In this document: piece after piece, positions 1,296 through 53,453 of the stretch
Layout of the letters: every line of letters starts with the position of its first letter
Numbering within the stretch: position 1 is the stretch's first letter
Source: Escherichia virus TH37
Sequence record: MT446409.1
Direction: 5' to 3' (one strand)
Length of the DNA: 53,453 bases
The notes under the pieces: generated by a model
What the model was told of the DNA's origin: nothing
Seen by the model: only the letters and a program-made list of their open reading frames with translations
Databases searched by the model: none
Position numbers and translations under genes: made by a program

Positions 1296-1824
1296 GTGAG
1301 ACTAGCTCATTACAACAGCGTGCTCTGATTGCCCTTGACCTTGACCCACTACCTAACTTGGTGTTGTTTGAAAGCCGATAGGCTGTAGAAAAAGTTGGGG
1401 TAGGGACCGTATTTAAGTCCGATAGGACGTTGGGCTTCCCCTCCCCGCCACCTCAAAAATAAAAAATAATATTAGGCGAACAAAGTGAGCAATTGCCACA
1501 ATTCTAGTCTCATTAATATTGTAGCAATTCGAGTCTCATTAATTCCGTAACAATATTTAAATTAAAAAAAAATTATATAAAAATTTTTATAACATAGTCG
1601 GACTTCTGTTCGAACAAATTCCGGCTAGATACAGCTGACCGACCATTTACCATTTGGTTTTGAACTTTACGCATTCCTAATATTACTCTAATATTGTAGC
1701 AATATTGGGAATAAGTAATATTGAAAACTTACTTATTTTATTCTAGCTCAAAGAGAAACGACGCTAACGCATCGAATCTCTTCTCACATATTAACTGACA
1801 AACGTCAGCCTTCACCATATCCAA

Positions 1825-2943
1825 TCATAATTCAAATCCACCCAGAGCATTGGTATCAACTTCGGAGTCAATTTGCCCAACCAGGTAGGAACTAATCTCC
1901 GTTTCCTGTGGAGCAACTTGTACAGCATCCGAATTCAACCATGCGTTAATCCATGGAATAGGATTCGTAGCACCTTTGAATGGGGCATCCAATCCAACTG
2001 CTTGCATACGAATATTCGTGATATATTCGACATATCCGCACAGAATTTGCTTGTTTAAGCCAATCATGGAGCCATCTTTGAACAGATAATCGGCCCAATC
2101 TTTCTCTTGTTGGGCAGCATCTTCGAACAATTTCTGGCATTCTTCGCGGCATTCTTGGGCAATTTCACCCATTTCTGGGTCATCTTTGCCACTCACCAGG
2201 ATATTCAACATGTGCTGAGTTCCAGTCAAATGGAGTGCTTCATCTCGTGCAATCAGTCGAATAATCTTGGCATTTCCTTCCATTAACTTGCGTTCAGCGA
2301 AGGCAAATGAGCAAGCAAAGCTAACATAGAAGCGAATTGCTTCAAGTGCGTTGATAGACATGAGGCATAAATAGAGCTTCTTCTTCAACTCACGAAGACT
2401 GATTTCATGACCAGCATGGTTCCCTTCTCCGAACAACTGCCATAATGCGGTTAGTTCTTGAAGCTCGTCATAATATTGGGAGATGCCAATTGCTCGTGCT
2501 TTGATATGCTCGTTAGTTACGATTTCATCAAAGATAATGCTTGGGTCTGTAACAATATTACGAATGATGTGGGTGTAAGAACGTGAATGGATAGTCTCGG
2601 AGAAAGACCAAGTTTCAATCCAAGTTTCAAGCTCAGGAATGCTCACAATTGGAAGCAAAACTGTGTTCGGTCCACGTCCTTGAATTGAGTCCAGAAGGAT
2701 TTGATATCGCAAATTACTGGTGAAAATGTGCTGTTCGTTTGCTGGAAGCTTCTGGTAATCAATACGGTCTTGTGAAACATCTACCTCTTCCGGTCTCCAG
2801 AAGAACGACAATTGTTTCTCAATCAACTTCTCAAATATGCCATACTTCTGCTGGTCATAGCGAGCAACGTTGACGTTCTGACCAAAGAACATTGGTTCTA
2901 ATAATTGGTTATTCTTGGTTTGTGAAAAGGTAGTGTAAGACAT
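1825..2943 (-). CDS. nrdB: Ribonucleotide reductase class Ia beta subunit (NrdB)
   Basis: 372 aa collinear with and near-identical to E. coli NrdB as recalled ([14 protein letters not shown]..., ...[21 protein letters not shown]). Confidence 0.95.
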
Positions 2944-2945
2944 TA

Positions 2946-3506
2946 TTATTTATTTCCTAAATACTTATAAAATTTATGTCCGCCATAAGTTCCTCTTCCA
3001 ACAACTCTTTTGAAATTACATTTCTCTGTAGCTGTGCAGAAGTGGGTGGCATCGGTTACATCCGGAGCATCCAACAATGCGAAGTTAATTGCTACATTCA
3101 TGGTGTCCCAAACCTGTTTTGATTCAGTCTTCCAATTTGTTTTAACTATGTTCTTCCATTGAGCATTCTTCTTCTTTGCTTCTCTTGTCCAAGCAAACTG
3201 GTTGCGTTGATAAACTACATCGCAAACGGTGTTAGCGAATGGCTTCCCGAATTTGATTCGATTACGGACGACATTAGCTACCAGAATCTTTCCATGTTTG
3301 CTTTCTCCACGAGCTTCAAACCAAATTACTTTGGCATAGCATTCTATATCTTTGCGTTGAGAAATAGATAGTTTCGGATTTCCATTTAAATAAGATTGAC
3401 TTGCAAATTCTGTAATAGTGGCGTTCACTGCCCCAGCCGAAGCTGGGACATTTGCGTGAAACAGACTCACCAACAGAAATGCAAGAACTTGTGCTGAGGG
3501 CATCAT
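2946..3506 (-). CDS. Endolysin, SleB/Hydrolase_2-type cell wall hydrolase with N-terminal signal or SAR sequence
   Basis: N-terminal hydrophobic leader [26 protein letters not shown]; WFEARGE and [13 protein letters not shown] motifs; adjacent to holin-like gene. Confidence 0.6.
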
Positions 3507-3521: not shown

Positions 3522-3863
3522 TTATTTGGCCTTCTTAAACCAATTGAGTGGGTTGAGTTGTTTGATTGCAGCAGTGAAGCAATCTCGAATTGTGGTAATG
3601 ATTAGGTTAGCCCCAATCAAACCAATCACCATTGCGGCGATTGTGGCATAGCGCGGTTCATCTTTGAATATGTCCACGAAGCCTGGGAGGGAGAAAACGA
3701 ACGTACCAATGACCACACAAAGGAGGGCATCAAGAATAGCTTTCAGCAAGCCTTCCTTTTCATATGCCCCACGAATAAGTGCAGTCAATCCAGCCAGGAG
3801 TCCATGAAGAACTCCATACTGGTGCATTGCTTCCCAAACCATCTGGAAAGTTTGTCTATCCAT
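3522..3863 (-). CDS. Holin-like membrane protein (3 predicted TM segments, charged C-terminus)
   Basis: 113 aa, three hydrophobic stretches, C-terminal NWFKKAK, directly upstream of endolysin. Confidence 0.5.
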   Translation of the reverse strand: MDRQTFQMVWEAMHQYGVLHGLLAGLTALIRGAYEKEGLLKAILDALLCVVIGTFVFSLPGFVDIFKDEPRYATIAAMVIGLIGANLIITTIRDCFTAAIKQLNPLNWFKKAK

Positions 3864-4393
3864 TAGATTTCATTCCAGTCGATTGTTTTAGTTAAGTCCA
3901 TTCGAGACACAAGGATGCGCTTCTTCTTCAATTCAAGAAGAGCTTCTTCATCACCTTTCTCTTGCATCTTGAGTTCAAACACACTATCAAGCAGAGCAAT
4001 CTGTTCTGATAAACGAGAGATTACTTTACCCTGACGGAACTTGTTGAACAGTATGCGGTTCTCAGTGTGAGGTACAAACTTCTTACCATCAAACTTCCAG
4101 AAGTGCATTTCTTCTGCAACACCTTCTGGTAGGACATCCAATTCAACTATGTTTCCACCTAGCGGCGTAGCCACAGTGTCACCAGGTCCAAAGTCGATAT
4201 GACGAATAGAGCCATCATTCTCATACACGACCTTGGCAGTTCCATCTTTAAGACTCTTTCGAATCTTATACCAGCACTTACCATTCTCGTCACACCCGAA
4301 GATAATTTTGTGCTCATCCTTAAGCACTTGCTGGTTTTCAGTTAAGTTTGTGTTCTCAACAAACCCTTTATAGTTACACAGAATAGCTGTCAT
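3863..4393 (-). CDS. Putative tail fiber assembly protein/chaperone
   Basis: 176 aa ORF immediately downstream of tail fiber genes; positional inference only. Confidence 0.35.
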   Translation of the reverse strand: MTAILCNYKGFVENTNLTENQQVLKDEHKIIFGCDENGKCWYKIRKSLKDGTAKVVYENDGSIRHIDFGPGDTVATPLGGNIVELDVLPEGVAEEMHFWKFDGKKFVPHTENRILFNKFRQGKVISRLSEQIALLDSVFELKMQEKGDEEALLELKKKRILVSRMDLTKTIDWNEI

Positions 4394-5726
4394 ACCATGT
4401 TCCGTTCATATATTTCTGCAATTTACGACGACCAACGTAGTCAATAAATTCATCAGAAGTTGTGTTATAGCACGATGTAATGACCCAACCAGATTCATCG
4501 CGGTAGCCAGGGCCACGCCATGCAGCAGTTTCTTGGTAGGATGCTAAACGAATGTCACTCATGAAATAGGCATTGACCCAATTCTCTCGTGCAAATCGGA
4601 AAGGACCGCCATTACCAGTGTAGTCGATGTTACCATCAAGGCCGAACATCCAGTTATGCACTGCTCCGTCATCGCTTCGGCGTGAAATTACAGGACTTGA
4701 GAAGTCCGATGTTCTGGTGTATGCACCAAAGGAAATCCAAGAGCCGTACCCGTAACCAGTTGTGATTGTGTTCAGTGTTACGATTGGGACCCATGAGTCT
4801 GGTGCAACATTACAACTGTATACACCATAAGGGACGTTGCCATCTGCCTCCTGACCCCAACCACGACCCCAAGTTATGCCGCGATACTGCCCAAGCAAAT
4901 CAAGCTTAAAGTCCCGACCAGTGCCAAGTAACTTAAGTTGGTTGTGCCCTTCTGCGATAAGACGTGCAGTAAAATCCAAACCAGAGTTTGCATAGTGGAA
5001 GTCAATATATGGAAGGTTATTGTACAACTCTATTGCACCAACTTCTGTGATTCGGTCACGCTGATTAACTCGTGCAAGCTCTCTCCAGTTGGCCCAATTC
5101 TGCGAGGCATCTAGTGTACGACTTCGAACCCAAACGTTTCCGTAAATTGATGTATAACGTTGCTGAACATTGTATGCAGTTGGAAGAACTTCCAAAGTAC
5201 CAGCCGCTGCCGCAGGGTATCCACCAGCAGAGCCAGCAACAGTATCAGACTCTTGATAGTAGATACCAACATCTGATGCACTTGTAAGCGCATTAATGTT
5301 CATGGTTCCGGCATTCTTGCAAGTCATTACAGCATGTGCTATATACGACCTGCCACCAGATGGACCTTGCGAGTAGTACATAATCGGAGGTCGTGCTGCA
5401 TCACCATGCGATACTAGGATTGTCGCTTTGCTGATATCAGACACGCCAAGAACAGTAATGATTACATACGCACCGCTTATAGAAGATAAGTCCCACCTCT
5501 GTAACTCTGGGGGAATGTTGACAGCAGAACTCATTTCAACATACAGAACCTCACCGTTTACAAAAGTGTAGGTATTGAAGTTGAAGTTTCTTACAAATGC
5601 TGTGGTTGGAATCTGGGCATTCTTTTGTCCAACAGTGATTACCTCACCACGAGCAGTACCTGCATTTAAGAATGCAGCAGACTTTAAGGCGGCAACTAAG
5701 CCGCCAAATGACCAACCTTTAGCCAT
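4374..5726 (-). CDS. Tail fiber protein (distal/receptor-binding part)
   Basis: 450 aa, Gly/Tyr/Ser-rich, last of three consecutive fiber-like genes. Confidence 0.5.
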   Translation of the reverse strand: MAKGWSFGGLVAALKSAAFLNAGTARGEVITVGQKNAQIPTTAFVRNFNFNTYTFVNGEVLYVEMSSAVNIPPELQRWDLSSISGAYVIITVLGVSDISKATILVSHGDAARPPIMYYSQGPSGGRSYIAHAVMTCKNAGTMNINALTSASDVGIYYQESDTVAGSAGGYPAAAAGTLEVLPTAYNVQQRYTSIYGNVWVRSRTLDASQNWANWRELARVNQRDRITEVGAIELYNNLPYIDFHYANSGLDFTARLIAEGHNQLKLLGTGRDFKLDLLGQYRGITWGRGWGQEADGNVPYGVYSCNVAPDSWVPIVTLNTITTGYGYGSWISFGAYTRTSDFSSPVISRRSDDGAVHNWMFGLDGNIDYTGNGGPFRFARENWVNAYFMSDIRLASYQETAAWRGPGYRDESGWVITSCYNTTSDEFIDYVGRRKLQKYMNGTWYDSYSV

Positions 5727-43464: not shown

Positions 43465-43701
43465 CTACAGTGCTTTCCAATCTGAGTCAAACAGTTCCTT
43501 TGGTCTTGAATAAATTATCGAATCAACACCAAAGAAGGTATGACTTCCATACTTCTTAACTTCCTGGTACGCAAACCCATCCACCCAATTACCGCAGTGG
43601 GTTTTAATCTTTGTAGCAAACAGGATTCGATAGTAGTGGCCGCGTGGCTGGTGGAAGAGAATATCTTCTGGCTTGATTGAGTTAATATTTAAATCACACA
43701 T
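43465..43701 (-). CDS. Hypothetical small protein
   Basis: 78 aa co-oriented ORF. Confidence 0.35.
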   Translation of the reverse strand: MCDLNINSIKPEDILFHQPRGHYYRILFATKIKTHCGNWVDGFAYQEVKKYGSHTFFGVDSIIYSRPKELFDSDWKAL

Positions 43702-44251
43702 TTAAGAACAATACCCCTTCGGAGAAGATGTAGTCACTGCCGAAGTCTTTTACAACTGCTTCCCAATCAATATATGGTCTGAGATTATCTGGAACCTCAA
43801 ACACATCATCTTGCTTTAAGTAGTCTGCAATTGAATCACAACGAGTAATGAACATGTTGTTCAAGTCGTCAACAGTGAAAATGTCAATTTCATCGCTACG
43901 GAATGCAGCAAGAATTATATCCAAGTCAGTGTCAGTAAGTAGTTCGTTGAACTTATCATACTTGCGAATGCTGAATAGGCCATTGGCAAAGCAAACTTCT
44001 GTTACATCTGCCTCACTTGATTCAATTACGTCATATGCACCAGCTTCTGGGTATTCGATGCCGTATTCCTCATGCAAATACTCCCGCATATTGAAGTCAT
44101 ACAGTCGCCAGGCCAGGCCATCAATCCAAGCATCTTCATACTCGGAATTGTTTTCGCCTGTGTAGAAACGAACCAATAAGGTTTCATCTCTACGCCAGGA
44201 CTTAAGTTGTTCTACTGCTTGAATAATTAAGTTTTTCATCGGATGCTCCAT
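43694..44251 (-). CDS. ArdA-like antirestriction protein (acidic DNA mimic) candidate
   Basis: 185 aa, highly acidic; C-terminal VPDNLRPYIDWEAVVKDFGSDYIFSEG resembles ArdA C-terminal region as recalled. Confidence 0.45.
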   Translation of the reverse strand: MEHPMKNLIIQAVEQLKSWRRDETLLVRFYTGENNSEYEDAWIDGLAWRLYDFNMREYLHEEYGIEYPEAGAYDVIESSEADVTEVCFANGLFSIRKYDKFNELLTDTDLDIILAAFRSDEIDIFTVDDLNNMFITRCDSIADYLKQDDVFEVPDNLRPYIDWEAVVKDFGSDYIFSEGVLFLNV

Positions 44252-44254
44252 TGA

Positions 44255-44764
44255 CTAGATTTTGTTTATGTATGCAAACTCGCCATGATACCTGAGTGCA
44301 GCAGCATTGTACGCCCTTGCCGCATCTTCTGGAGTATTGAAAGTGCCAAGGCATCTTCTTACACCATTCTCGGATATTCTGGCAACGTACTTGCCTCTAC
44401 TGCTTTTGTGGACACCTTTGTATCCAGAGGTGTTGGAGGTCGACACTCCTACGTTCATCAAGTTTTGTTTTGCAGACACATCACGAAGATTCTCAATTCT
44501 GTTGTTAAGGATATTCCTATCAACATGGTCTATAATCTTTGGGATATACCCATGATGTAGCCAGAATACTATCTGGTGAGCTTTCCATTTTGTACCTTCG
44601 ACAGATACTCTTAAGTACCCATCACTACACACATACCCAGCAACGTCTCCCGTACGAGCTTTTGGGCTAGTGGTTTGGGTTCGAATAAGGTTGCCCGTTT
44701 CTGGGCAATACCTTAAATATTTATCGAACCTTGGATTATTTCGGGAGTTCGAAATGAGGTGCAT
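44255..44764 (-). CDS. HNH-AP2 homing endonuclease
   Basis: 169 aa; HNH_3-like GYLRV...HQIVFWLHHG...IDHVDRN and AP2-like GYKGVHK...GKYVARI...GTFNTPEDAARAYN. Confidence 0.65.
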   Translation of the reverse strand: MHLISNSRNNPRFDKYLRYCPETGNLIRTQTTSPKARTGDVAGYVCSDGYLRVSVEGTKWKAHQIVFWLHHGYIPKIIDHVDRNILNNRIENLRDVSAKQNLMNVGVSTSNTSGYKGVHKSSRGKYVARISENGVRRCLGTFNTPEDAARAYNAAALRYHGEFAYINKI

Positions 44765-45131
44765 CCAAGAATTTAGCCCATTTAATAGGTTCTTCGTAGT
44801 GGGATAGCCACGTCGCCCCCCACCGTATAGTAATTCCCAATTCCTGTGCTGCCGAAAACATATGTTTAGCTAAAATTCTAAACCGTTCGAGGTCATTCCA
44901 GTCAATTGGATATGGTGCAATGTCCAAAGCGTTGCCTGACATGTGTCGGCTAACAGAAACTTTGGTTGCACCCTGCTTTAAAAGCTCTTGTTGACGTTCA
45001 TAAGAGCGTAAACCTTCCAGAACAGTTACATCAAAAGGCATGGTTTCACATGCCCGTTTGAAAACTGCCACTAATGAAGGATTTACTCCCTTAAGTCGGT
45101 CTAAAGAACGTTGGCCGAGCTTAACATTCAT
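44736..45131 (-). CDS. Peptidase M15 / LAS-family zinc peptidoglycan peptidase
   Basis: 131 aa; SRHMSGNALDIAP and DAPHFEL zinc-binding motifs. Confidence 0.55.
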   Translation of the reverse strand: MNVKLGQRSLDRLKGVNPSLVAVFKRACETMPFDVTVLEGLRSYERQQELLKQGATKVSVSRHMSGNALDIAPYPIDWNDLERFRILAKHMFSAAQELGITIRWGATWLSHYEEPIKWAKFLDAPHFELPK

Positions 45132-46871: not shown

Positions 46872-47243
46872 TTAGAATGGAATGTCGTCGTCGAAGTCTT
46901 TCGGCTCGTTCGGGTTATAATTGCTCTGCTGTTGTTGAGCAGGAGCTTGCTGTTGTGCAGAAGGTTGCTGGCGTTGCTGTTGCTGTTGAGCGGCAGCTTG
47001 AGGTTGAGCTTTGGCTTTAGCTTTCTCTTCACGCTTACGCATCATTTCATCAACCTGCTCTTGAGTCATGATGGTGAGTGCCAGTGAGGTAAATTCATTA
47101 TCGTTGGCTTGCTTGTTCCAACCAGACACCCAATACCAGATTCCGTCAACGTTAATACGTCCACGAATGTCAGGATGTTTTGGGTCTTTCTTGAAGCCGT
47201 TAGGACCGATAATGCCAGTGTTTACATCTGAATATTGTGCCAT
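46872..47243 (-). CDS. Small Gln-rich protein ending in the bacterial SSB C-terminal tip DFDDDIPF
   Basis: 123 aa; last 8 residues identical to the E. coli SSB tip as recalled; low-complexity Q/A-rich linker; short N-terminal domain. Confidence 0.5.
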   Translation of the reverse strand: MAQYSDVNTGIIGPNGFKKDPKHPDIRGRINVDGIWYWVSGWNKQANDNEFTSLALTIMTQEQVDEMMRKREEKAKAKAQPQAAAQQQQQRQQPSAQQQAPAQQQQSNYNPNEPKDFDDDIPF

Positions 47244-47315
47244 GATTAAGATTCTCTTAAGTTAATTACAGTTTAAGTTTCAGTGACATTGCTAACCACG
47301 GAATAGCTTTGTCTC

Positions 47316-47331
47316 TCACATCCAACTAATT
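47316..47331 (-). promoter_or_regulatory. Conserved phage promoter-like motif, copy 5
   Basis: Plus TCACATCCAACTAATT. Confidence 0.5.
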
Positions 47332-47368
47332 GGATTATTCGGGTACACTCGTAAATGCACCCTGATAA

Positions 47369-47821
47369 TCATTTACAGATAAATACCGGAATATCCATCT
47401 GGTTTAAATACTTAAGCATAAGTGGACGTACTTGTGTTGCATAGTCCAGCTGCCCATTTCCACAACCAAGTGGGGTTATTGCAAGTGAGGTTATTCCACA
47501 GCGTTTGTAGGTTTCCACCAACTTAACAAGGCCCTGTTCAATCCACCCAAGTTGAGAAGGATTTTGCCAATGTTGTTTTGTTGGGAAACATAGCCCAAGA
47601 CGGCCATCATTAAGACGCTGCAACAGCAATTGCCCAATCTTGAATCCACGGTTGCACGCAGTTCTGTAGTTCTTAAATGCTTCTGGATAGCGGCGTTTAT
47701 ACTCTTTTGCAACACCAGCACCCATTACGCCAACAAGATTCACAGTACAAGTTACAGTTTGCGCATCCACAGTAAATACGTTGGCCTTACCTTCAAATAC
47801 GATTGGCATAATCTTCTCCAA
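47369..47821 (-). CDS. Macrodomain protein (ADP-ribose binding/processing)
   Basis: 150 aa; VNLVGVMGAGVAKEYKRRYPE and ITSLAITPLGCGNGQLDY match macrodomain signatures. Confidence 0.65.
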   Translation of the reverse strand: MEKIMPIVFEGKANVFTVDAQTVTCTVNLVGVMGAGVAKEYKRRYPEAFKNYRTACNRGFKIGQLLLQRLNDGRLGLCFPTKQHWQNPSQLGWIEQGLVKLVETYKRCGITSLAITPLGCGNGQLDYATQVRPLMLKYLNQMDIPVFICK

Positions 47822-47831
47822 AAGTTGTTAT

Positions 47832-47847
47832 TCACATTCAACTAATG
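47832..47847 (-). promoter_or_regulatory. Conserved phage promoter-like motif, copy 6
   Basis: Plus TCACATTCAACTAATG, ~15 nt upstream of macrodomain gene SD. Confidence 0.5.
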
Positions 47848-47888
47848 TTAGATTAATCAGGAACACTCAATGAATGCTCCTTGTTAAT

Positions 47889-48086
47889 TTAACAGGATTT
47901 ACAATCGTTTATGAACTTTCTACGCAATTTGCGCACTTGCTTTTTGGTCGGCTTCGCTGGAAAGAATTTGCATTCGACGTTGTGCCAAGGACTGCATTCT
48001 TCACCAACAAACCACAGAGTCCATCCAGCAAATATGTTCATAGGACTGTGGCTTTTGTGGCTATACAAATGTGTATTTACACGCAT
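47889..48086 (-). CDS. Hypothetical small protein
   Basis: 65 aa co-oriented ORF. Confidence 0.25.
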   Translation of the reverse strand: MRVNTHLYSHKSHSPMNIFAGWTLWFVGEECSPWHNVECKFFPAKPTKKQVRKLRRKFINDCKSC

Positions 48087-51950: not shown

Positions 51951-52012
51951 AGGATTTAATTAATAAAGAATAAAGAAAGGGCCATCACCTTTCGATGACA
52001 GCCCTGTTTCTC

Positions 52013-53453
52013 TTATTGACAGAAGTAGTAAGCGTGTTCGCTCATCAGAAGCTCTTCAGTAACAATGTTCTCATGGTACATGTTGATGCCACCAAGTTGC
52101 TTAGACAGAGATTCAAACTGATTATTGTGAACAAAGATTTCAACATAAGCAGAACGAATTACTTCCATCATTTTAGGAGCATCAGCTAAGCAGCAACGGA
52201 AACAATCGTGAATTGAAGTAAAGCCACGAAGACCAGCTTCTTTAGCTTTGACTGCAACAGTACGAGCAACCAATGCGTCAATACCTTGAATGTAGTTAAC
52301 AACGAAGGTACGCTTGAATTCTTCTTTAGTTGGGTTGGACTCACGAATGGTCCAAGGCTTATTCTCCTGAATCTGACCAAAGATAACACGAGTTTGAGAG
52401 TCAACACGAATGCTGAATGCCTCACAGATTTCACGAGATGGGAAGCAAGGCTTCATTACAACCTGACCATCAGTGTGACGATATGTGATGTACTCTTTAC
52501 CAAGTTCAACACAACGATTGTATGCAGCATCAGCAGCTTTCTCGATGAACATGTTAATCTTAGCACCCAATGCGTTATGGATTGCTTCTACACAAAGTTC
52601 AGCAAATGCTTCTGCTTTCTCAACAGGAATCTGGAGAGATGCTGTCATGTATGCAATGAAGTCAGAAGAACCAGTTAATGCAGCTTTACCACCACCATAT
52701 TGGATAGCCATGTATGGAGTTTTGATAAACTTACGACCAGCTTTCGGATTCAAGAATTCATCCATGATTTCAGCAGATGGTTTCATTGAAGAACGGTCAA
52801 GCAACTTCAACAGTTCACGAAGAGATAACTGGTATGGGTCAGATGCTTTAGTTGATGAATCAACCAGACCTGTTGCACGAGCCATCTCCATGTTACCAGC
52901 AATGAATGCCAGATATTGAGTACCAGAACATTTAGCATCTAAGCCAAAGCCTACACGAGAATCGCATTCACCTGTAGTCTCAAACTTGAACCAATCCAGA
53001 GCCAGACGAACATAAGTGAATGGCTTAGAAGGACGTTCAGCTTTAGGCATGTTCATCATGCGAGCAAGTGAACCAGCTGGATTCTGAGCAACATAAGTTA
53101 AACGCTTAGCAGAAGTCCAGTCTCCACCGGAAATATCTTCCAGCTCTGCCATAAACATGTTGTATGCAATGGTAGTAGAACCATCTTCGTTAAACTTCTT
53201 AACGATGTTCTCAACATTGTGAGAATACAAGCAACGAGCAAAGTCAGATGATTGTGGGTTAGGACCAGCACATGCTACATGGTACAGACGACCACGGTTA
53301 TCAGCAAAGTAGTCAGAGAACAGAGTGTCCTGACCAACCATTGCTACAGCATTGTTCCAAACATGGAGTTCAGTCTGGATTGCTTCTGGCATCTGCAAGC
53401 CACCATAAGTACGTTGTTCAATCATAGACTGGATGATGCGAACCATCTCAGTC
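52013..53453 (-). CDS. T7-like single-subunit RNA polymerase, C-terminal part (N-terminus beyond the window end; matches 1-1217 across the repeat)
   Basis: DNRGRLYHV, motif A-like GLDAKCSGTQYLAF, motif B-like KTPYMAIQYGGGK, motif C IHDCFRCC collinear with T7 RNAP DWRGRVYAV / DGSCSGIQHF / MTLAYGS / IHDSFGT. Confidence 0.85.
   Translation of the reverse strand, partial: TEMVRIIQSMIEQRTYGGLQMPEAIQTELHVWNNAVAMVGQDTLFSDYFADNRGRLYHVACAGPNPQSSDFARCLYSHNVENIVKKFNEDGSTTIAYNMFMAELEDISGGDWTSAKRLTYVAQNPAGSLARMMNMPKAERPSKPFTYVRLALDWFKFETTGECDSRVGFGLDAKCSGTQYLAFIAGNMEMARATGLVDSSTKASDPYQLSLRELLKLLDRSSMKPSAEIMDEFLNPKAGRKFIKTPYMAIQYGGGKAALTGSSDFIAYMTASLQIPVEKAEAFAELCVEAIHNALGAKINMFIEKAADAAYNRCVELGKEYITYRHTDGQVVMKPCFPSREICEAFSIRVDSQTRVIFGQIQENKPWTIRESNPTKEEFKRTFVVNYIQGIDALVARTVAVKAKEAGLRGFTSIHDCFRCCLADAPKMMEVIRSAYVEIFVHNNQFESLSKQLGGINMYHENIVTEELLMSEHAYYFCQ

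Follow-up and report, generated by a model that had tools for sequence, protein, structure and literature searches.

A probable anti-DarT2 macrodomain of the AdfM type in a swappable gene slot of an Escherichia Chaseviridae phage

The window analyzed here (the whole 53,453-nt stretch of phage DNA) encodes a stand-alone macrodomain protein of 146 amino acids that probably serves the phage as an orphan DarG2-like antitoxin. Judging from its sequence and its predicted fold, we put at roughly 0.8 the probability that it is an "anti-DarT factor macro" of the AdfM type, that is, an enzyme that would erase thymidine-linked ADP-ribose from phage single-stranded DNA (ssDNA). Fold, family, key residues, orphan status, swappability and homology to AdfM are all backed by the analyses described below. 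The class to which the protein would belong has already been described and named, and its activity has been demonstrated experimentally in T4 and PhiKZ; the example is new, the principle is not.

The window comes from a Carltongylesvirus-like phage. The region that contains the gene is 88-94% identical at the DNA level to Escherichia and Yersinia Chaseviridae, specifically Carltongylesvirus and relatives (ST32, DE15, flopper and PYps3T). Chaseviridae are 52-56-kb myophages that carry a T7-like single-subunit RNA polymerase (ICTV profile, PMC12842549). The open reading frame that the initial annotation had proposed at 47369..47821 is present on the minus strand, and both peptides quoted as macrodomain signatures, VNLVGVMGAGVAKEYKRRYPE and ITPLGCGNGQLDY, lie inside it. 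The start codon, by contrast, had to be replaced: the true start is almost certainly the ATG at 47809 and not the TTG at 47821, a shift of 12 nt, because a GGAG Shine-Dalgarno sequence lies 6 nt upstream of the ATG, the TTG overlaps this GGAG, and the relatives (five close ones from databases and the gene annotated in DE15) share a length of 146 aa. The same ribosome-binding context precedes all three alternative cargo genes found in the relatives, as an alignment of the intergenic regions indicated. GC content gave no sign of a foreign origin (0.40-0.44 for the macro gene vs 0.35-0.45 nearby). The positions of these and other features are listed in Table 1.

Table 1. Features of the macro gene, its slot and its surroundings, and the corresponding loci in other phages (positions are those of the window unless an extracted locus is named)
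Feature	Position	Strand	Remark
AdfM-like macro gene, 146 aa, stand-alone DarG-type	47369..47809	minus	ATG 47809, stop 47369
Shine-Dalgarno GGAG of macro gene	47816..47819	minus	sequence read directly; 6 nt before ATG 47809
Module A	47822-47885	minus	precedes cargo
Module A hairpin	47859..47881	minus	10-bp stem, -12.6 kcal/mol, z -3.7; directly upstream of promoter motif
Promoter-like motif ATTAGTTGAATGTGA, module A	47832..47846	minus	candidate phage-RNA-polymerase promoter
Module B, direct repeat of module A	47306..47368	minus	between macro and SSB genes; hairpin core 47341-47362, -13.8 kcal/mol, z -4.2; motif ATTAGTTGGATGTGA 47316-47330
Starts of the 15-nt motif	1280, 28088, 33445, 41069, 43238, 43379, 47316, 47832, 51029, 51880	minus	
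Single-stranded DNA-binding protein (SSB) gene	46872-47243	minus	conserved downstream neighbor of slot
65-aa DUF7279 gene	47889..48086	minus	variable upstream neighbor of slot
Anti-restriction-like gene	43694-44251		
HNH_3 + AP2-domain protein gene, 169 aa	44255-44764	minus	homing-endonuclease type
M15 peptidase/endolysin gene	44736-45131		
Terminator-like hairpin	51978-52005	minus	12 bp, 6 GC, then T-run; right after RNA polymerase gene
Phage RNA polymerase gene	52013-53446	minus	5' part cut by window end
Kuravirus copy of macro gene, Escherichia phage EK5 (82% identical)	4001-4441 of extracted locus		directly after Rz-like/o-spanin genes
160-aa slot gene, ST32 gp18 / Pel53 gp33	ST32 3576-4058; Pel53 3570-4052 of extracted loci	minus	
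173-aa slot gene, flopper and Ecp_YSF	2072-2593 of extracted loci	minus	annotated "DprA-like"; sub-threshold DprA/SLOG Pfam hits only
Single hybrid module, PYps3T	~1945-2085 of extracted locus		
Agricanvirus macro + 293-aa gene pair	Special G 1743-3100; Deimos-Minion 2017-3374 of extracted loci		

That the gene encodes a macrodomain, as had been claimed from the letters alone, was borne out by a profile search, in which the protein scored 35.3 bits against Pfam Macro (PF01661; curated cut-off 22) over residues 22-124 of its 146 (E 1.2e-8). It also matched the DarG profiles of PADLOC (152 bits, E 6e-45, profile positions 6-142 of 329) and NCBIfam (antitoxin_DarG, NF048014; 143.7 bits, E 8e-42, profile positions 6-144 of 338), in both cases in the N-terminal macro half only; the score lies below the NF048014 equivalog cut-off of 250 bits, and the protein ends at residue 146. 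[quoted passage not shown] The AlphaFold2 model of the protein (pLDDT 96.2) gave the same picture, in that the top four Foldseek matches in the PDB were DarG entries (TM 0.86-0.92, rmsd 1.5-2.5 Å, E 6e-16 to 6e-15), with the M. tuberculosis and T. aquaticus macrodomains at TM 0.89-0.92, and TARG1 came next, six orders of magnitude behind (E 1e-9, TM 0.83).

Sequence and model together identify the phage protein as a DarG-type (TARG1-like) macrodomain in which the catalytic and ADP-ribose-binding residues are intact. It does not belong to the full-length DarG antitoxin family, because neither its domain architecture nor its operon context is that of the family; in action it would resemble DarG's macro half. 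The 146-aa protein has no room for the DarT-binding C-terminal domain found in DarG, and a tblastn search with three DarT proteins found no DarT-like ORF in the 53-kb window (best E 0.58). With neither a DarT in the window nor a toxin-binding domain in the protein, the gene is an orphan antitoxin.

The active site can be compared with that of T. aquaticus DarG (TaqDarG), for which the ADP-ribose contacts have been listed; there, activity is abolished by K80A and impaired by N22A, K29E and G119E, W83 is the probable stacking partner of the modified thymine, and the macrodomain alone is a sufficient antitoxin (PMC5179494). In the phage protein the key residues are N10, T22, N24, GVMGAG (27-32), T77, the catalytic K78, H80, W81 and G115-C-G-N-G119. 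K78, within the motif FPTK, aligns with TaqDarG K80 and TARG1 K84, and the alignment further pairs N24, T77, H80 and W81 with TaqDarG N22, T79, H82 and W83, and G115, G117, N118 and G119 with G117, G119, N120 and G121; TaqDarG N8 and T20 are kept as N10 and T22, and V33 is also found at the corresponding position. The substitutions are V11 for L9, E36 for Q34 and A31 for K29. A lysine at the last of these positions is not essential, because the active AdfM of PhiKZ and TARG1 have alanine there as well. In an alignment of 36 homologues, K78, N24, W81 and the glycines are invariant. A loss of catalytic or ligand-binding residues, which the initial annotation had named as one finding that would speak against its proposal, was not seen.

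Searching 1.8 billion representative sequences with HMMER gave 6684 matches, the best of which (45-54% identity) were either stand-alone proteins of ~150 aa or proteins of ~300 aa with an N-terminal macro domain. The ~300-aa cellular relatives (49-52% identity) also fall under the NCBIfam DarG cut-off, owing to divergence in the C-terminal half. Adjacency to DarT was therefore used as the criterion, and the three that we looked up all sit immediately upstream of a PF14487 DarT. We then surveyed the neighborhoods of the best 80 loci in a one-genome-per-species collection. The macro ORF was at least 250 aa long in 69 of the 80, and a DarT-like gene lay within 3 kb in 56, a lower bound because the DarT queries were of one subtype; in 53 of these 56 loci DarT was 0-134 nt off and on the same strand. 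Given the DarT adjacency of the long relatives, the nearest cellular relatives are true DarG antitoxins. None of the best 80 cellular loci came from Enterobacteriaceae, so these relatives do not establish the source of the gene or its match to the DarT2 enzymes of E. coli.

Among deposited phages, the sole other carrier in the phage's own family is DE15 (95.9% aa identity), and the gene is present in 1 of ~45 deposited relatives. Elsewhere, about 40 Kuravirus podophages of E. coli have a copy 81-83% identical next to the spanin genes, over 200 phages, most of them jumbo phages, have copies at 30-45% identity, and metagenomic contigs of ~53 kb have copies that are 67-98% identical. Because of this patchy distribution, we regard the macro gene as accessory and horizontally mobile among coliphages. 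The Kuravirus copy, in its different genomic context, indicates a recent horizontal exchange between unrelated coliphage families.

The macro gene had also been described as part of an early region that includes an ArdA-like gene and an SSB-tip protein. The "early" placement, made from position, is reasonable because the gene shares its strand with the RNA polymerase gene, lies ~4 kb downstream of it and belongs to an array of small genes; it is not universal, since the Kuravirus copies stand beside spanin genes rather than among early genes. Directly downstream of the macro gene is indeed an SSB gene whose product has the acidic tip DFDDDIPF. The ArdA-like assignment fared less evenly: the gene matches PHROG 14321, "anti-restriction protein", at E 2e-53, but no Pfam family at E<0.01. 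Inserted between this gene and the M15 peptidase/endolysin gene is the gene for the HNH_3/AP2 protein, for which the tables of ST32, Pel53 and DE15 hold no counterpart, only small hypothetical proteins of 80-92 aa. On the other side of the slot, the DUF7279 gene is present in the window phage, ST32, PYps3T, EcoM1 and TH29 and absent from DE15, Pel53, flopper and TH23, and EcoM1 and TH29 have an extra predicted membrane protein of 77-84 aa beside it. "Staphylococcus phage Pel53" (PP952070.1; host given as Staphylococcus hyicus) is ~94% identical in DNA to the E. coli Carltongylesvirus-like phages in this region, and its host assignment looks doubtful.

A copy of a promoter motif had been reported 15 nt upstream of the macro gene. 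The motif is there; the distance is 22 nt counted from the ATG and 10 nt counted from the TTG. With at most two mismatches the motif, (a)cATTAGTTGGATGTGA, occurs in 10 copies, all of them on the coding strand, and with at most three mismatches it has 15 matches against 4.5 expected, a number reached in 0 of 100 shuffles. Eight of the 10 copies are intergenic, though 87% of the coding strand is coding, and the other two fall on the last stretch of small ORFs that directly precede large genes. Sigma-70-type promoters, by comparison, are not enriched around the macro gene (28 vs 28.6 in shuffled sequence). The motif is, on its sequence and distribution, a good candidate for the promoter used by the T7-like RNA polymerase of the phage; according to the ICTV profile of 2022, the promoters of Chaseviridae had not yet been identified (PMC12842549). 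One perfect copy (51880) is situated ~85 nt downstream of the terminator-like hairpin that follows the RNA polymerase gene, an arrangement consistent with a transcription-unit boundary.

The slot upstream of the SSB gene was surveyed in ten genomes, and its intergenic regions were aligned for five phages. The cargo gene is bracketed by two direct copies (modules A and B) of a ~55-nt module, in which a hairpin is followed by the promoter motif ATTAGTTGRATGTGA. The module A hairpin is kept in DE15, ST32 and flopper, with sequence changes that preserve the pairing, and is probably a terminator or a processing site for the upstream transcript. The slot holds the macro gene in the window phage and DE15, a 160-aa gene of the ST32 gp18 type in ST32 and Pel53, and a 173-aa gene of the flopper gp11 type in flopper and Ecp_YSF; it is empty in PYps3T, EcoM1, TH29 and TH23. 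In PYps3T, which has no cargo, a single hybrid module remains, with a 5' half of type A and a 3' half of type B. This sequence arrangement is the expected remnant of a recombination between the repeats, and suggests that such recombination may delete or swap the cargo.

The two alternative cargo genes were examined for their own relationships. The Pel53 allele is labeled "DUF1768" (NADAR), and single-sequence searches with it gave nothing meaningful (Pfam to E 10, NCBIfam, PADLOC and PDB phmmer). There is no Pfam model for the 160-aa family, but a profile of the family matches the NADAR structure 8bau (E 4e-4), and the AlphaFold2 model (pLDDT 96) has only NADARs as significant Foldseek matches in the PDB (YbiA, Phytophthora NADAR and Geobacter lovleyi NADAR). 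An hhalign comparison of the family with T4 gp30.3 (AdfN), a validated anti-DarT1 factor (PMC11825919), gave a probability of 94% and E 1.4e-7. By profile and predicted structure, then, the 160-aa slot protein is assigned a NADAR fold and a remote homology to AdfN. A slot that holds an AdfN homologue in sister phages fits a locus for undoing DNA ADP-ribosylation, and the set of alleles lends indirect but independent support to a role of the slot against ADP-ribosylation. The NADAR-like family occurs in 547 phage records, sometimes as a fusion with DUF4326. Homologues of the 173-aa flopper gp11 type occur in 1278 phage records; a BLASTP comparison of flopper gp11 with the C-terminal, SLOG-like part of Special G gp155 gave no match, and a PDB sequence search with flopper gp11 was also empty.

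A related association is found in Agricanvirus Erwinia jumbo phages, where an AdfM-like macro gene is followed by a 293-aa gene and the pair adjoins UvsX. The N-terminus of the 293-aa protein is NADAR-like, of the ST32 gp18 type (43% identity), and its C-terminus is YspA/SLOG-like. In Deimos-Minion, gp156, upstream of the macro gene, had been considered as the NADAR-like gene; that was wrong, and the domain is the N-terminus of the gene downstream. The Agricanvirus arrangement agrees with the association of Macro, NADAR and SLOG noted previously (PMC9503650). For the Carltongylesvirus-like phages we propose, tentatively and at slightly less than even odds, that the slot is a hot-swappable counter-defence cassette in which recombination between the modules exchanges or deletes AdfM-like, AdfN-like or SLOG/DprA-like cargo, and that ATTAGTTGGATGTGA is the promoter of the Chaseviridae single-subunit RNA polymerase. 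If this is true, one modular locus would decide which ADP-ribosylation or NAD-derived defence a phage escapes.

Our working model for the macro gene is as follows. When a host with a DarTG2-type system is infected, DarT2 would ADP-ribosylate thymidines in the phage ssDNA and replication would be blocked. The 146-aa macrodomain would be made from its own promoter, in the transcriptional neighborhood of SSB, and would cut the bond between thymidine and ADP-ribose by means of Lys78, while Asn24, Trp81 and the loop G115-G119 would keep the ADP-ribose and the base in place, such that replicable DNA would be restored. Its action would be purely enzymatic, because the C-terminal DarT-binding domain of cellular DarG is missing. 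In this model we infer the substrate (thymidine-linked ADP-ribose on ssDNA), the timing of expression and the protective phenotype. A DarTG-type target, as the initial annotation suggested, is the best-supported reading because the similarity is to the DarG clade, the nearest cellular relatives are DarT-linked DarG proteins, and the homologous phage macrodomains PhiKZ gp104 and T4 Tk.4 counter DarTG2.

The sequence does not reveal the substrate with certainty, and TARG1, the next-closest fold, also acts on proteins. The protein might accordingly counter some other ADP-ribose-based defence, one that places adducts on RNA or protein (for example CmdTAC-type mRNA modification) or that uses soluble signals or toxins (Thoeris-type cyclic ADPR isomers, ADPr-1''-phosphate). 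Macrodomains are versatile, the third slot allele is SLOG/DprA-like, and the Erwinia jumbo phages have their macro gene followed by the NADAR-like/SLOG fusion. A comparative-genomics survey argued that soluble ADP-ribose derivatives, and not adducts on macromolecules, are the targets of most phage macrodomains, and proposed that phage Macro, NADAR and SLOG proteins act mainly on low-molecular-weight ADP-ribose derivatives (PMC9503650). We consider this alternative unlikely for the protein studied here: its similarity is specific to DarG, by at least 20 orders of magnitude over the MacroD, nsP3 and Poa1p types, it has both the catalytic Lys of TARG1/DarG and the Trp specific to DarG (the proposed stacking partner of thymine), and both phage homologues that have been tested act on DarT2.

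A housekeeping role as an "Appr-1''-p phosphatase" that clears by-products of RNA ligation and tRNA repair is suggested by the label of PHROG 335 ("phosphatase") and by several phage records that name homologues Appr-1-p processing enzyme or phosphatase. This label, however, goes back to old annotation of macrodomains, and Poa1p-type proteins are distant by sequence (E ~0.1) and, by fold (E 2e-8), rank below DarG and TARG1; moreover, the gene is accessory rather than general among the deposited relatives, and its neighborhood showed neither RNA ligase nor repair genes, all of which makes such a role very improbable. No more credible is that the protein balances an ADP-ribosyltransferase encoded by the phage itself, as a self-antitoxin or regulator, or is a catalytically dead reader of ADP-ribose. 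Some phages, such as T4, do carry their own ADP-ribosyltransferases, and macrodomains can serve as binding modules, but tblastn with DarT proteins found no DarT-like partner in the window, sister phages swap or drop the macro gene without a partner gene changing, and the catalytic residues are all intact.

DarTG systems are widespread phage defences, and orphan antitoxin enzymes (AdfN and AdfM) are a recently recognized route by which phages erase DNA ADP-ribosylation. The anti-DarT2 reading would extend AdfM to a third, unrelated lineage, the small RNA-polymerase-encoding myophages of E. coli, some phages of which have been used for biocontrol. Because the promoter-flanked slot holds a macro, NADAR-like or SLOG-like gene in sister phages, our data suggest that a single cassette could serve both to predict and to engineer sensitivity to DarTG1 vs DarTG2, which would help when therapeutic phages are selected or designed. 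It is the modular slot and the candidate promoter that most deserve further work. The protein itself is more DarG-like than either validated AdfM, and is thus a clean candidate for biochemistry.

Compared with known systems, the phage protein has the same fold and active site as the bacterial DarG proteins of T. aquaticus and M. tuberculosis (TM ~0.9; PDB 5M31/5M3E/5M3I; PMC5179494), but it comes from a lytic phage, has neither the C-terminal DarT-binding domain nor a DarT beside its gene, and reaches 143.7 bits where the family cut-off is 250. Human TARG1/OARD1 belongs to the same macrodomain subclass and shares the Lys-based mechanism (TARG1 K84), whereas its identity to the phage protein is ~20% and it has Ala at the position of Trp81 and Asp125 at that of Gly119. 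AdfN (T4 gp30.3) and the phage NADARs follow the same strategy, that of an orphan antitoxin-like glycohydrolase that reverses DNA ADP-ribosylation by DarT (PMC11825919). The NADAR fold is nevertheless unrelated to that of the phage protein, and AdfN is specific for the guanine adducts made by DarT1. The slot, in turn, recalls the PeSL cassettes of T4-type phages reported by Arbiol et al. in 2010, in which repeated promoter-plus-hairpin modules are said to flank accessory genes and to recombine, swapping or deleting the cargo; here the promoter motif (ATTAGTTGGATGTGA) is phage-specific, the genome is that of a Chaseviridae phage, and one slot was examined.

The closest parallels are the two AdfM proteins. 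T4 Tk.4, likewise an orphan stand-alone macrodomain of an E. coli phage, is the one gene that turns essential when the E. coli host expresses DarTG2 (bioRxiv 10.1101/2025.11.20.689424). Its pairwise similarity to the phage protein is marginal (BLASTP E 0.012) and it scores only 36 bits against the PADLOC DarG profile, which together suggest, at the level of sequence, either an independent, much older acquisition or a different macro subclade. By comparison, the Erwinia jumbo phage homologue matches the phage protein at 38% identity and E 7e-32. PhiKZ gp104 strips the ADP-ribose added by DarT2 from DNA and relieves the toxicity of DarT2, and PhiKZ requires it on hosts with DarTG2 (PMC13309987). 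Its identity to the phage protein is 38% (E 4e-34); both are stand-alone DarG2-type phage macrodomains, and both have the Asn (N23/N24), the catalytic Lys of FPTK, the Trp, the PLGC-x-NG loop and Ala at the K29 position. Import into the phage nucleus, a 9-residue insertion and a C-terminal tail are PhiKZ AdfM's own, whereas the protein described here is shorter and comes from a 53-kb myophage (Chaseviridae) that forms no nucleus. With 152 bits against the PADLOC DarG profile, it outscores both PhiKZ AdfM (133 bits) and T4 Tk.4.
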